Assembly (NCBI GenBank): GCA_030390025.1
Contig: CM059432.1
Span: 36,148,001-36,212,000 of the forward strand
Source of the DNA: Squalus acanthias
Taxonomy: Eukaryota
DNA: 64,000 bases
Direction: 5' to 3'
Positions within the stretch are counted from its first letter, which is position 1; every line of letters starts with the position of its first letter. This document shows positions 25,930 to 31,479 of the stretch, one piece after another. The notes beneath the pieces were generated by a model, which saw only the letters and a list, made by a program, of their open reading frames with translations, was not told the DNA's origin and ran no database searches. The translations under genes were made by a program, and so were the position numbers.

Positions 25930-26271
25930 TACATTACACTTGATCCCTTCATCTAAGTCATTAAGATAAATTGTAAAAAACAGGGCCAAGCACTGATCCT
26001 TGTGGCACCCCACTAGTTACAGCCTGCCAACCTGAAAATGACCCGTTTATCCCTACTCTCTGTTTTCTGTCCGTTAACCAATCCTCTATCCATGCTAATA
26101 TATTACCCCAACCCCATGCGCCCTTATCTTGCGTAGCAACCTTTTATGTGGCACCTTATTGAATGCCTTTTGGAAAACCATTGATTCCCCTTTATCTACC
26201 CTGCTAGTTATATCCTCAAAAAACTAATAAATTTGTTAAACACGATTTCCCTTTCCTAAAATCATGTTGAC

Positions 26272-26465
26272 TGTGGTAACACAATACAGCTTCCTGTGAC
26301 TCGAACTTTATTGCATCACTTCCTGTGATTAGTCCAGGATAAATACTGGACTGATCAGTTGGATCCTGGAGAGGCATAGAGTAAGACCTCTTTTGTATGT
26401 AGCACCTTTTTAGTTGATTAAAGCTTACTTTAAGTTCACCACGCGTAAGGCTCATTCTTACGACA
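26272..26465 (+). repeat. 5' LTR (194 bp)
   Basis: TGTGGTAA...TTACGACA (7/8 terminal inverted match); two CTTCCTGTGA repeats; ATTAAA at 26417-26422; identical to 30541-30734. Confidence 0.97.
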
Positions 26466-26466
26466 A

Positions 26467-26477
26467 TTTAATCAACT
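26467..26477 (+). promoter_or_regulatory. Non-tRNA primer-binding site complementary to the element's own LTR (putative self-priming)
   Basis: TTTAATCAACT, 1 nt after the LTR, is the exact reverse complement of AGTTGATTAAA at 26412-26422; no TGG-initiated tRNA complement at this position. Confidence 0.7.
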
Positions 26478-26543
26478 TTGGAAAACTTCGCACTCAAACT
26501 TTTTGGACGAACTCGGAACTAAGGATCCAGGGAATCACCCATC

Positions 26544-29500
26544 ATGGAAAACATCCTTAAACCATCGCGTCTTGACTTGGACCCAAACACCCCAGCAGCC
26601 GGTAAGGTGTGGAAACACTGGTATCGCACGTTTGACAATTTTCTTGAATATTGTAAGGCTGATGATAACTCAAAGTTACGGATACTCATCAACTGTGTCA
26701 CCCCGAATGTATTTCAGTATGTGGAGAAATGGGACAGTTACAAGGAGGCAATTCGGACGCTTAAGAGACTATATACTAAGACACCGAATGAGGTCTATGC
26801 CAGACATCTACTAGCTACAGCCCAACAAGGGCCAGAGGAATCCATTGATAAATTCCTCCAAGAGCTTCGCAGACTTAGTATGGACTGTAACTTTCGGGCG
26901 GCCTCAGCTGAGCTGTACCATGAAGAAATGATCCGTGATGCTTTCATCTGCGGGCTTGCCTCCCCATTTATACGCCAGCGTCTACTGGAAAGTAAGACAC
27001 TTGAGCTTCAGAGAGCTTATGACATGGCTTGCTCTCTAGATCTGGCAAAAAGAAATGCAGACCTTTATACAGTGCCCAGACCTCGGTCTACTGCCTTAAC
27101 TACAGTCAGGCAATTTAAGAGGCCACAGGTGAACTCTATTAGGGAGGTCTTTATCCCTGACGATCAATCTGATGACTTCACTGATGAAGAGGATGATGAC
27201 CCCACTGTGGCAGCCTCTTGGCAATCTAAGAAATGCTTCTTTTGTGGTGATGAGTTCCACCCTCGGAAATTCTGCCCTGCTCGCAATGCGTTTTGCAGTC
27301 ATTGCAACAAAAAGGGTCATTTTGCAAAGGTTTGCCTATCAAGAGCCTCTACGAGGGCTTATCAAGCTAAGTCCTACCGAACTGCCCCGGTAAGGGCCTA
27401 TCAAGATGTTCCGGCTAAAATCTATCGTGCTTCCTCTCGAAGAAACACACCTAGAGTTTCAGCCACTCTTTGTGCAACGACACCAACTGCTTGTCCTCAG
27501 AACCTATTCCATGCAGCTACAAAAGCATCAATTAATGGACATACTTTAGATGCCTTAATTGACTCAGGTAGCACTGATAGTTTCATTAGGGAACAGATTG
27601 TTGCAGAGTTAAAGCTACATGTTTTCCCATCGGACCAGGCAGTTGCGATGGCTCAGTCATCACTTAATACCAGAATTTCTGGCTTTTGTATGGTTGAAAT
27701 AACACTTAATGGCCGCAGGTATCCCTCCACCCGGCTTTCGGTGCTCAAGGACTTATGTAGTGATCTTATCTTAGGGCTGGATTTTCAAAAGCAGCATAAG
27801 AAGCTCACCATTGAGTTCGGCGGATCCAAACCTGAACTCACTATTTCTAATATACTACCTCGATTACCGTTCTGTGCATTGTCAGCAGCTTCACTGGATG
27901 AACCCTCACTGTTTTCCAGTATCCCTCCTCGATGCAAACCGATTATAACAAAGTCACGACGTTTCAGTCAGGAAGACCAGTCTTTTATTGCGGCTGAGAT
28001 TTCTCGGCTTTTAGCAGAGGATATCATCGAGCCTTGTTCGTCGCCATGGCGCGCCCAGGTCGTTTTTGTTAAGAACCCTCTACAACCTCACAAGAAACGG
28101 CTGTGCATTGACTATTCACAGACCATCAATCAATATACGGACTTGGACGCATACCCATTGCCGCGCATCGATGATATGGTTAATAAATTGGCTGAGTACA
28201 CGGTGTTCTCAACATATGATCTAAAAAGTGCCTATCATCAGATACCCTTGAAGGTCTCAGACAAGCAGTATACGGCCTTTGAAGCCAATGGACGGCTGTA
28301 TCAATTTCGTTGCCTCCCCTTTGGGGTCACTAATGGAGTGGCTGTCTTCCAGCGAGCAATGGATGACCTGGTCAAACAGGAAGACTTGAAGGATACGTTT
28401 CCTTATCTGGACAATATTACTGTCGCAGGTCGCAATCAGCGGGAACATGACGCCAATCTCCAACGATTTTGGGACGCACTCCAGCACCGTAATTTGACAT
28501 TAAATGCGGCTAAATCCATTGAGTCACAACCAACCATCAACATCCTTGGCTATTGTGTGGGCAATGGCATCATTAAACCTGACCCTGAAAGGCTTCGCCC
28601 ACTCCAAGAACTCCCGCCACCTAAGAATCCGGCCTCCTTGCGCCGGGCCCTCGGCCTGTTTGCATACTATGCTAAATGGATTCCTAACTTCTCGGACCGA
28701 ATCCAACCTCTACTGAAGGCCAGCACATTCCCACTAGACACAGCGGCTGTTGCAGCCTTTAACCTCCTGAAAAAACAGTTGGAGAAAGCGACTCTTCACT
28801 CCATCGATGAGAGTCTTCCTTTTGTCGTTGAGTGTGATGCCTCGGAGGTGGCGATCTCGGCCACTCTGAATCAGGAAGGTCGTCCGGTGGCATTTTTGTC
28901 CAGGACTTTTCAAGGGGCTGAGCTACATTATCCTCCAGTCGAGAAAGAAGCTACAGCCATCATAGAGGCAGTACGGAAGTGGAGTCATCTCCTAGCTCGC
29001 CAGCACTTTACCTTAATCACGGACCAGCGATCGGTCGCCTTCATGCTCGATAATCGAAAACGGACCAAAATTAAAAATAATAAAATCCAGCTTTGGCGGT
29101 TGGAATTGGCCTCTTTTGGTTACACCATCCACTATCGACCTGGCAAGGAGAATGTGGCTCCGGATACCCTCACACGAGCATTCTGCTCCGCCATGGCACC
29201 CTCTATGCTCGTAGACATCCATGATGGGTTGTGTCATCCGGGCGTTACTCGCATGCTACACTTCGTGCGGTCCCGAAATCTCCCATTCTCTACCGGGGAT
29301 GTAAAGAAGACGTGCTCGGACTGCAGAGTCTGTGCGGAATTGAAACCTCGGTTTTTCCGCCCCTCGGGTGGTATACTCATACATGCGACCCAGCCAATGC
29401 AACGGCTTAGCATCGATTTTAAGGGGCCGTTGCCCTCTTCAACTCGCAACACTTATCTATTGACCATGGTCGATGAGTATTCCCGTTTTCCGTTTGCCTT

Positions 29501-30476
29501 TCCCTGCCCCAATATGCTGACGACCACGGTTATCAGCTGCCTTGAGCAGGTATTTGCTTTCTGTGGCATGGCATCCTATGTTCATTCGGATCGGGGCCCT
29601 TCTTTTATGTCAGGAGAACTCAAGGCCTATCTCTCGGAACGGGGTATTGCTGCCAGCAAAACGACGCCTTATCATCCGGTCGGGAATGGGCAAGTCGAGC
29701 GTTTTAACGCTATCATCTGGAATGCGGTACGTCTGGCTTTGAGATCTCGGGGCTTACCCAACCAGCAATGGGAAGCAGTGCTTCCAGACGCATTACACTC
29801 CACACGGTCCCTCCTTTCGACCGCCACAAATACGACGCCTCATGAACGGTTCTTCCGATTTCAGCGTCGCTCATCCTATGGGATATCTCTCCCGTCGTGG
29901 CTGACTGCACCGGGACCAGTGCTACTCCGAAGATATGTCCGGGCGTCTAAGAATGACCCCCTGGTAGATGAGGTTGAGCTCACTGACGTCAACCCTACCT
30001 ACGACTATATTCGGTATCCTGACGGTCGGGAATCTACCGTGTCATTGCGGGATCTGGCTCCCTGCCCGCCGAAACATAGAGGGACACCAGGGGATGATAT
30101 TGTACCAGGCACATCTCTGGGCTCGCCAGGTGCCTCTCATCACGATCTGGATCTGACGCCGGCTGGTACCTCACTCCAGCGTGCCGACCTGGGGCAGACT
30201 GACTATGAGCCCGTCGGGGCTCACACGCGCAGCCACGATCCACCCTGTACCGTACGCTCGGAAACGGATCTGCCACAGCCCTGCCCGACACCCGTTCGGG
30301 CACCAGTACACAGTCAGGATCGTCCTGACCCCTCACAGAGCGGGCTGGATCGCTCGGACTCTGGTCCACGGCCCGCGGCGGGTAAACGGGCTAGGGGCCC
30401 TCTACCGCTACGAGAACCCAAACGGGTGCGGCTCTCCCTCGTCCAGCGGCTACGAAATGGAGGGAGAATGTGGTAA
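26544..30476 (+). CDS. Single-frame Gag-Pol polyprotein, 1310 aa
   Basis: Two CCHC knuckles (CFFCGDEFHPRKFC, CSHCNKKGHFAKVC), protease LIDSGS, RT (YDLKSAYHQ, LPFG, YLDN), RNase H (CDAS, EKE, TDQ, PDTL), integrase HHCC and DD35E; no stops or frameshifts. Confidence 0.96.
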   Translation: MENILKPSRLDLDPNTPAAGKVWKHWYRTFDNFLEYCKADDNSKLRILINCVTPNVFQYVEKWDSYKEAIRTLKRLYTKTPNEVYARHLLATAQQGPEESIDKFLQELRRLSMDCNFRAASAELYHEEMIRDAFICGLASPFIRQRLLESKTLELQRAYDMACSLDLAKRNADLYTVPRPRSTALTTVRQFKRPQVNSIREVFIPDDQSDDFTDEEDDDPTVAASWQSKKCFFCGDEFHPRKFCPARNAFCSHCNKKGHFAKVCLSRASTRAYQAKSYRTAPVRAYQDVPAKIYRASSRRNTPRVSATLCATTPTACPQNLFHAATKASINGHTLDALIDSGSTDSFIREQIVAELKLHVFPSDQAVAMAQSSLNTRISGFCMVEITLNGRRYPSTRLSVLKDLCSDLILGLDFQKQHKKLTIEFGGSKPELTISNILPRLPFCALSAASLDEPSLFSSIPPRCKPIITKSRRFSQEDQSFIAAEISRLLAEDIIEPCSSPWRAQVVFVKNPLQPHKKRLCIDYSQTINQYTDLDAYPLPRIDDMVNKLAEYTVFSTYDLKSAYHQIPLKVSDKQYTAFEANGRLYQFRCLPFGVTNGVAVFQRAMDDLVKQEDLKDTFPYLDNITVAGRNQREHDANLQRFWDALQHRNLTLNAAKSIESQPTINILGYCVGNGIIKPDPERLRPLQELPPPKNPASLRRALGLFAYYAKWIPNFSDRIQPLLKASTFPLDTAAVAAFNLLKKQLEKATLHSIDESLPFVVECDASEVAISATLNQEGRPVAFLSRTFQGAELHYPPVEKEATAIIEAVRKWSHLLARQHFTLITDQRSVAFMLDNRKRTKIKNNKIQLWRLELASFGYTIHYRPGKENVAPDTLTRAFCSAMAPSMLVDIHDGLCHPGVTRMLHFVRSRNLPFSTGDVKKTCSDCRVCAELKPRFFRPSGGILIHATQPMQRLSIDFKGPLPSSTRNTYLLTMVDEYSRFPFAFPCPNMLTTTVISCLEQVFAFCGMASYVHSDRGPSFMSGELKAYLSERGIAASKTTPYHPVGNGQVERFNAIIWNAVRLALRSRGLPNQQWEAVLPDALHSTRSLLSTATNTTPHERFFRFQRRSSYGISLPSWLTAPGPVLLRRYVRASKNDPLVDEVELTDVNPTYDYIRYPDGRESTVSLRDLAPCPPKHRGTPGDDIVPGTSLGSPGASHHDLDLTPAGTSLQRADLGQTDYEPVGAHTRSHDPPCTVRSETDLPQPCPTPVRAPVHSQDRPDPSQSGLDRSDSGPRPAAGKRARGPLPLREPKRVRLSLVQRLRNGGRMW

Positions 30477-30527
30477 CACAATACAGCTTCCTGTGACTCG
30501 AACTTCATCCCGGCCTCCTAATCTTTT

Positions 30528-30540
30528 GGGGGGGGGAGAA
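30528..30540 (+). promoter_or_regulatory. Polypurine tract
   Basis: GGGGGGGGGAGAA directly before the 3' LTR. Confidence 0.9.
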
Positions 30541-30734
30541 TGTGGTAACACAATACAGCTTCCTGTGACTCGAACTTTATTGCATCACTTCCTGTGATTA
30601 GTCCAGGATAAATACTGGACTGATCAGTTGGATCCTGGAGAGGCATAGAGTAAGACCTCTTTTGTATGTAGCACCTTTTTAGTTGATTAAAGCTTACTTT
30701 AAGTTCACCACGCGTAAGGCTCATTCTTACGACA
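30541..30734 (+). repeat. 3' LTR (194 bp)
   Basis: Identical to the 5' LTR by eye; followed by TSD TTGAC. Confidence 0.97.
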
Positions 30735-31479
30735 TTGACTCTGCCTAATCATATTATGATTTTCTAAATGCCCTGTTACCACACCCTTAATAATGGATTG
30801 CAGCATTTTCCCAACAACTGATGTCAGGCTAACTGGCCTGTATTTCCTTGTTTCCTCTCTCCCTCCTTTATTGAATTAGCGGGGTTACATTTGCTACCTT
30901 CCAATCCACTAGGACCGTTCTCGAATCTAGGGAATTTTGAAAGATCACAACCAATGGATCCATTCTTTCTGCAGCCACCTCTTTTAGAACCCTAGGCTGT
31001 AGGCCATCAGGTCCAGGGGATTTGTCAGCTTTTAGTCCGATTAGTTTCTCAATTACTTTTTCTCTACTGATCTTAATTAATTTAAGTTCCTCACTCTCGT
31101 TAGCCCCTTGGTTCCCCACTATTTTTGGTATGCTTTTTGTGTCTTCTACTGTGAGGACAGATACAAAATATTTGTTTAAAGTCTCTGCCATTTCCTTATT
31201 TCCCATTATAATTTCTCCTGTCTCAGCCTCTAAGGGACCAACGCTTACTTTTGCTACTCTTGTAGAGAGAGACAAGAACGAAAGATTCAATGATGGTTAT
31301 GACTCTACTCAGAGGAAAAGCGGGGTAATATCATTTATTCCTCTGTATACCTGCTGCTTAGACATTGAGTGCGTCAAGACTTGGTCGAACACAATAAACA
31401 ATTTAGTTGCAACCATATTTGGTGTCAGATTCGAATTCTCTTACACCTCCTCCCACCTCAATGTCAAAAAATGACGGCA

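Follow-up and report, generated by a model that had tools for sequence, protein, structure and literature searches.

Covarying pairing between long terminal repeat and primer-binding site points to self-priming in a Mag-like Ty3/Gypsy clade of animals

The fission-yeast retrotransposon Tf1 is said, after the work of Levin in 1995 and 1996, to use the first 11 nt of its own mRNA as the primer of reverse transcription. Self-priming of this kind has been demonstrated for Tf1 and Tf2 (PMC4600332, PMC5341516), and for Tf2 and Tj1 a self-primer derived from the long terminal repeat (LTR) is described as pairing with their primer-binding site (PBS) and being cut by the reverse transcriptase (RT) (PMC5341516, PMC4600332). 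It has further been proposed for Tj1, for the fungal Maggy/Skippy group and for the vertebrate sushi group (PMC4600332, PMC6934838, PMC6317226), the sushi proposal being credited by both PMC6317226 and PMC4600332 to Butler et al. 2001, and it has been predicted computationally for plant Tcn1 (a Gypsy chromovirus) and TAR (Ty1/Copia) (PMC6317226). The Gypsy cases that are named in PMC4600332, PMC6934838 and PMC6317226 are all chromoviruses. Here we describe a complete Ty3/Gypsy element (positions 26272-30734, 4463 bp; Table 1) in a 64,000-nucleotide stretch of the Squalus acanthias genome (contig CM059432.1, positions 36,148,001 to 36,212,000; hereafter the window, on which all coordinates are given), in which a segment of the LTR pairs with the bases that directly follow it, and we document that this pairing sits at the boundary of the LTR, that copies keep it and that its two sides covary from family to family.

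The two LTRs of the element carry TG..CA ends and show no difference over 194 nt, and the 11-nt complement begins one base (A26466) past the 5' LTR, which is the location of a primer-binding site. A sequence-only reading of the window had claimed a perfect 11-nt complementarity without extension on either side, the lack of a TGG-type tRNA PBS and a strong-stop DNA of about 44 nt, all of which held on re-examination: AGTTGATTAAA (26412-26422) is the exact reverse complement of TTTAATCAACT (26467-26477), the flanking bases (T26411/T26478 and G26423/A26466) are unpaired, so that the match measures exactly 11 nt, TGG does not abut the 5' LTR, and the arithmetic of the strong-stop product (26423-26466) is correct. 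The motifs ATTAAA (26417-26422), TTAGTT (26410-26415), CGTAAG (26444-26449), CTTACG (26457-26462) and ATAAATA (26339-26345) likewise lie where that reading had placed them. When the LTR was shuffled with its dinucleotides kept (downstream bases fixed, offsets 0-5), a complement of at least 11 nt arose in 8 of 20000 shuffles (4e-4). The 69-nt RNA 26412-26480 is predicted to fold into the 11-bp helix with two inner hairpins (-15.4 kcal/mol, z = -3.7), and none of 200 shuffles folded as well. The nearest TGG (26480-26482) reads TGA in six of seven older copies of the family and in all covering contigs of three of the four public runs (X1, X3 and X11), and since it varies among copies in this way there is no conserved tRNA-type site at this place.

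This architecture resembles that of Tf1 and Tf2 (S. pombe) and Tj1 (S. japonicus) in that the PBS next to the 5' LTR can pair with part of that same LTR, that a tRNA PBS appears to be lacking (judged here from the missing TGG and from 20 tRNA-like host sequences of two anticodon types) and that the two pairing arms enclose a structured loop with a hairpin in U5. It differs from them in its animal host, in its two CCHC knuckles and lack of a chromodomain, in the shortness of its LTR (only 194 bp, with a putative R of ~30 nt), in the position of the poly(A) hexamer inside the primer arm, and in being known here from sequence alone. With the Tf1/sushi group (sushi-ichi) the element shares its status as a vertebrate Ty3/Gypsy element with a predicted self-primer; members of that group are, however, chromoviruses, which are described as usually having one CCHC array. 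Tcn1 and TAR are alike in that their PBS is predicted to pair with their own LTR, which places the trait in more than one lineage, whereas they belong to another kingdom (and TAR to another superfamily), and the available text of PMC6317226 does not mention a poly(A) hexamer in the arm.

The pairing is a property of families and is not confined to the window copy. The family of the window element (family A) is very young and abundant; all of the 40 scored copies (from 797 first-look candidates in a 3.7-Gb assembly) are 100% identical over 289 bases of LTR and leader, and seven additional loci (L055-L061) are older family A copies. Queries with proteins of other cartilaginous fishes brought out two sister groups in this genome. 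Subfamily C is 95% identical to the window element overall and only ~85% in the LTR, and its arms (AAGTTGATTAAA/TTTAATCAACTT) pair over 12 bp in 12 of 12 loci. Family B shares ~70% nucleotide identity with the window element and has a U3 without blastn similarity to it; the LTR similarity between A and B begins exactly at 26412 (query position 141) and continues across R, U5 and PBS. The arms of family B (CAAGTTGATTAAA/TTTAATCAACTTG) pair over 13 bp in all 12 loci, the thirteenth pair being C-G where the window element has T opposite T, so that both sides differ. The hairpin in U5 is also kept, CGTAAG/CTTACG of the window becoming CGTAGT/ATTACG in family B through one double change and one G-U pair.

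Homologues with 57-88% identity from RT to integrase were found in crustaceans, a tunicate, cnidarians, mussels, a nematode, a shark and a ray, typically as open reading frames (ORFs) of ~1200 aa on ~4-kb contigs. Metagenome contigs, scanned with 13 of the homologous proteins as an alignment, yielded 80 loci (40-70% amino-acid identity). Stems were searched for in 44 of these, in which the match reaches the N-terminus of gag (except L092, L124 and L127), and 39 loci were analysed, the remaining 5 of the 44 being too short upstream (at least 90 nt upstream of gag were needed). Of the 39 loci, 29 show a perfect stem beside the gag ATG, 11-18 bp long and closing a loop of 31-66 nt (shuffle P at most 1 in 300 for 27 of these 29), and in 5 further loci the stem measures 13-17 bp and contains a single mismatch or G-U pair. 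Taken together, 34 of the 39 loci have an LTR segment that pairs with what directly follows the LTR, and 27 distinct sequence versions of this pairing occur. The longest perfect complement averages 13.1 nt between a family's own arms vs 4.85 nt between arms of different families, and cross-pairing between the arms of families is limited to close relatives.

The covariation of the two arms was measured in an alignment of 23 families (A2), anchored on the inner arm ends and spanning an 18-pair helix. Paired cells make up 84.8% of this alignment, as compared to 66.3% when shuffled and 30-47% when the partner is slid, changes on both sides occur in 16 of the 18 helix pairs, and compensatory cells number 73 vs 24.9 +/- 3.7 in shuffles, a value reached by 0 of 500 shuffles. 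RNAalifold, run without a supplied structure, returned a 13-bp helix with 11 of 13 pairs compensatory, and the helix with its inner hairpins recurs in all 23 single-sequence folds (predicted), most relatives having a hairpin directly 3' of the arm. L068 and L072 differ at 4 of the 79 bases of this region, and two of the differences match each other, G>T in the arm and C>A in the PBS. The PBS side (ACAA, then TTTAA) is conserved even where the hexamer is non-canonical. Covariation between LTR and PBS had been named as a check by the sequence-only reading, and it was found: pairing is present in all family copies examined and covaries across the 27 distinct versions. Such covarying pairing is what self-priming predicts, and it is not obtainable from a tRNA primer.

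The position of the 3' arm bears on the same question. Where the LTR pair is cleanly delimited (11 relatives), 0-2 nt separate the LTR end from the 3' arm, and the 5' arm is contained within the LTR. The distance from the 3' arm to the gag ATG is 0-5 nt in many relatives (the L072-type order being LTR, A, a 13-nt arm, AA and ATG). As the 3' arm fills nearly all of the space between LTR and ATG in many relatives, there is no room for another PBS. Because the LTR boundary is set by the start of minus-strand synthesis, the primer has to be paired with the bases immediately outside U5. Furthermore, contigs of one assembly prefix (L068, L069, L072 and L094) carry several different arm/PBS pairs, for which one host tRNA set cannot account.

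On these observations we consider it probable that the element self-primes its reverse transcription in the manner of Tf1, and in what appears to be the best explanation of the data self-priming is a trait of a whole non-chromoviral, Mag-like Ty3/Gypsy clade across many animal phyla, extending well beyond the window copy. A host tRNA, an internal tRNA fragment or another small RNA might instead prime at 26467-26477, the match to the LTR being incidental; half-tRNA priming is known or predicted in some Copia lineages (PMC6317226), and the tRNA sample compared here (20 sequences) is far from complete. We regard this as very unlikely, given that 27 PBS sequences across the relatives are each matched by their own LTR, that several PBS versions co-occur under one assembly prefix, and that the LTR border in the window lacks TGG, the longest match to the 20 tRNA-like host sequences being 6 nt. 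That the complementarity arose by chance in an A+T-rich region is hardly credible: the 11-mer is indeed A+T-rich and was picked from many elements inspected in the sequence-only reading, but so long a match was rare among the LTR shuffles, the pairing recurs with other sequences in the related loci, and no shuffle reached the observed covariation.

More weight falls on an account in which the helix serves as a conserved RNA structure for some other purpose (poly(A) masking, packaging/dimerisation or control of gag translation) and the primer is a different one, though we still hold it to be unlikely. In its favour, priming is deduced here from DNA sequence, the 3' arm lies no more than 5 nt from the gag ATG in many relatives, so that the helix could affect translation start, and in 14 of 23 families the 5' arm has a canonical poly(A) hexamer as its innermost 6 bases (ATTAAA in 10, AATAAA in 4). 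On the other hand, the 3' arm sits exactly at the PBS location (0-2 nt after the LTR in the 11 clean cases), the window has no TGG following the LTR, and the space between LTR and ATG holds nothing more in many relatives, which excludes an alternative PBS there. The hexamer itself is placed in the loop in 3 of the 23 families and is absent from the region in 6, and the helix is kept in all 9 of these; with the hexamer in the arm of only 14 of 23 families, occlusion cannot be the general reason for the helix. The earlier proposal that priming is coupled to occlusion of the poly(A) signal is accordingly backed in part, by the 14 families with the hexamer inside the arm, and for most families occlusion in the 5' copy may be an additional effect. 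Were the arm the start of the RNA, moreover, the hexamer would lie 6 nt from the cap, a promoter-proximal position that alone should disable the signal.

Whether the RNA begins with the 5' arm itself (start at 26412) is, in our estimate, evenly balanced. Three hints speak for a start at the arm: the complementarity stops abruptly at family-specific lengths (11-18 bp), the A/B LTR similarity begins at 26412 itself, and TTAGTT is initiator-like. We also count in its favour that a TATA-like motif was not found within 110 nt upstream of the arm in 20 of 22 metagenome families. A contig (L139) that starts at the arm's first base was considered as a mark of the transcription start and set aside as a weak hint only, an assembly break at subfamily divergence being equally possible. 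The Logan contigs of the four public runs behave as genomic DNA, with breaks at LTR borders and many different flanks. Two relatives' contigs (L064:5679-5805 and L065:4717-4843) stop within the 3' LTR, 22 and 9 nt past the 5' arm and at about the expected poly(A) site; these ends would mark the end of R if the contigs are RNA-derived.

Several points weigh against self-priming. The shark families share a TATA-like motif, [A/T]ATAAATAC, located 73 nt (A and C) and 90 nt (B) upstream of the arm, the version in family B being TATAAATA within a U3 that is otherwise unrelated to that of family A. This shared motif would let the RNA start fall 40-60 nt before the arm, and a start ~30 nt past the motif would make the arm internal, which is unforeseen by the simple Tf1 scheme (primer = first 11 nt). 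In addition, no convincing stem was found in 5 of the 39 loci (L073, L078, L092, L121 and L124), which are decayed, permuted or mis-delimited contigs, the row for L124 being an analysis artefact. Among them L078 (L078:1-95), a 48%-identical relative, has TGGTCCTCCA (with a TGG start) directly after ...TTACAA and a weak 8-bp stem (P 0.17), and L078 may belong to the clade, or stand beside it, as a tRNA-primed element. Finally, the coverage of host tRNAs is small: the longest PBS match of 6 nt comes from only 20 tRNA-like host sequences (Lys(TTT)-like and Cys(GCA)-like), aragorn on ~1 Mb of host sequence gave 2 doubtful tRNA predictions, and the Rfam tRNA search of the host genome listed 63 places.

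Under self-priming of the Tf1 type, the cycle may be pictured as follows, with cleavage, priming and the extent of R being what we infer from the pairing. In the genomic RNA, 26412-26422 would fold back over a 44-nt loop with two small hairpins and pair with 26467-26477, whereupon RT/RNase H would cleave the RNA on the 3' side of the segment so paired, as for Tf1/Tf2. Extension of the freed 3'-OH would copy U5 and what remains of R (26466 back to 26423) into a strong-stop DNA of ~44 nt, attached by its 5' end to RNA that ends in ...AGUUGAUUAAA, and this product would jump to the 3' R, a stretch of ~15-20 nt from the arm to the poly(A) site. The plus-strand strong-stop DNA would then copy the primer, so that the PBS is rewritten from the arm in each cycle. 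Such rewriting would explain both the perfect pairing in young copies and the single mismatches in the decayed L067, L102, L112 and L116. As a by-product, in many families the poly(A) hexamer would be held inside the duplex in the 5' copy only.

Concerning the lineage, the Pfam domain order (protease, RT, RNase H, integrase) between the LTRs, together with the 5-bp duplication, is that of Ty3/Gypsy (Metaviridae). The best solved relative is the Ty3 Gag-Pol (E 7e-61), the matches in the PDB being Ty3 and retroviral enzymes, and the protein atlas clusters that were matched are generic RT/integrase only. A tandem-CCHC gag without a chromodomain had been read from the sequence, and this was borne out: the protein P0001 has two CX2CX4HX4C motifs, and a Chromo match was found neither in P0001 (at E<=0.01) nor in the precomputed Pfam domains of 120 listed homologues. 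No chromovirus was found among the other ORFs of the loci examined, which held only Gmr1-like or retrovirus-like elements. Jule of Xiphophorus, of the Mag family, measures 4.8 kb and has 202-bp LTRs. Two CCHC arrays are reported for Mag and Micropia/Mdg3, and usually one for chromoviruses (PMC2577118). The Mag C-clade (SURL of sea urchins) resembles the window element in its compact size (4-5 kb), short LTRs, two CCHC knuckles and marine-invertebrate and vertebrate hosts; the training length of the Mag C LTR is given as 174, with metazoan hosts that include vertebrates (PMC3601003), and the clade is described as very abundant in molluscs (PMC6238403). Judged by eye against the LTR-end model of Mag C (TGTNATRT ... 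AYANAACA; PMC3601003, Table 3), the 3' ends fit at 6-7 of 8 positions in the window element, L063 and L069 and at ~4 of 8 in L072, and the 5' ends fit poorly. By its features (two CCHC knuckles, no chromodomain, size, short LTRs and host range) the clade is probably Mag-like and separate from Tf1/sushi, the named families having been compared by description; at this level of features, the separate lineage that the sequence-only reading had proposed is supported.

Over residues 480-1080 of P0001 the identity amounts to 57-76% with shrimp, copepod, tunicate, soft coral, sea anemone and mussel, which is high for such distant hosts, and horizontal transfer among marine animals would be worth testing as its cause. 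Among 31-mers sampled from window positions 26272-27300, half or more are present in runs of five organism codes (A-E); near-identical copies under several species labels could reflect close relatives or horizontal spread.

Table 1. Features of the Ty3/Gypsy element and its flanks in the window
Feature	Position	Strand	Basis or remark
Target-site duplication TTGAC, 5' copy	26267-26271	+	same 5-mer at both LTR flanks
5' LTR, 194 bp, TG...CA	26272-26465	+	direct repeat with 30541-30734
Putative TATA-like ATAAATA	26339-26345	+	sequence; 73 nt upstream of 5' arm
5' arm AGTTGATTAAA, candidate self-primer	26412-26422	+	exact complement of 26467-26477; covaries in relatives
Putative poly(A)-signal hexamer ATTAAA	26417-26422	+	innermost 6 nt of 5' arm
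Hairpin 1 (GCUUA-CUU-UAAGU)	26423-26435	+	predicted minimum-energy fold; adjoins arm
Hairpin 2 in U5 (CGTAAG/CTTACG)	26444-26462	+	sequence and predicted fold; U5-IR stem-loop analogue
Spacer, single base A	26466	+	between LTR-end CA and PBS
3' arm = candidate primer-binding site TTTAATCAACT	26467-26477	+	complementary to own LTR
gag-pol ORF, single, 1310 aa	26544-30476	+	two CCHC knuckles, protease, RT, RNase H, integrase
43-nt duplicate: polypurine-tract end and first 37 nt of LTR	30463-30505	+	identical to 30534-30576
Polypurine tract GGGGGGGGGAGAA	30528-30540	+	abuts 3' LTR
3' LTR	30541-30734	+	direct repeat of 5' LTR
Target-site duplication TTGAC, 3' copy	30735-30739	+	same 5-mer at both LTR flanks

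The element is inserted in a very high-copy repeat (window 26216-26271 and 30735-30770), and contigs of the public runs pass from 26271/26272 directly into the sequence after the 3' target duplication, which is the empty-site form and supports the LTR borders. The copies of the 43-nt direct repeat lie 71 nt apart, the upstream one (30463-30505) containing the gag-pol stop codon (30474-30476), and the repeat may be a second plus-strand priming site or the relic of an aberrant jump. A second very abundant Gypsy-type family is present in the same genome (e.g. G000:C1:6135675-6135839), with frames of 1335 aa and dozens of identical Integrase_H2C2 matches. Among the relatives, L075:130-262 carries CACAATTTAACCAACTT twice, 65 nt apart and upstream of gag, on a contig that is terminally redundant, as in a tandem or circular form, and elements with the integrase before the RT (the Gmr1-like order) stand beside relatives on the same contigs (L068:4785-7874, L068:18930-23618 and L097:16184-20521).

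As far as PMC6317226 and PMC4600332 report, self-priming is experimentally shown only in fission-yeast elements of the Tf1 type and predicted in their chromoviral relatives and two plant lineages. Our literature search returned no report of self-priming for the Mag/SURL/Jule/C-clade lineage and no paper with both 'self-priming' and 'C-clade', the original descriptions of SURL and Jule and that of Butler et al. 2001 lying outside the search, so that an older remark on the PBS may exist. The present data support the same architecture, by unusually clear covariation, in a Gypsy clade that lacks a chromodomain and is widespread in animals; in one of its families, resident in a vertebrate genome, the LTRs are identical and copies without any difference number in the dozens. 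The finding bears on the evolution of priming, as the ancestor of LTR elements has been speculated to be self-priming (PMC3601003), and it offers a compact natural system in which R start, poly(A) signal, primer and PBS are interlocked within ~70 nt. For annotation it means that pipelines demanding a tRNA PBS will mislabel such elements, and for host defence that tRNA-independent elements escape small RNAs that target tRNA primer sites (PMC7472051). We tentatively put forward the wider possibility, which we advance with less than even confidence, that an old Mag-like clade without a chromodomain, ranging from cnidarians to sharks, gave up tRNA priming in favour of a primer encoded by the LTR of each family, in a duplex that in most families would both prime and mark the 5' poly(A) signal as unused; renewal of the PBS from this primer in every replication round would then account for duplexes that are nearly perfect and yet covary fast. 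Were this true, self-priming would be ancestral in Ty3/Gypsy or have arisen at least twice, and a large share of animal Gypsy elements would be blind to defence based on tRNA fragments.

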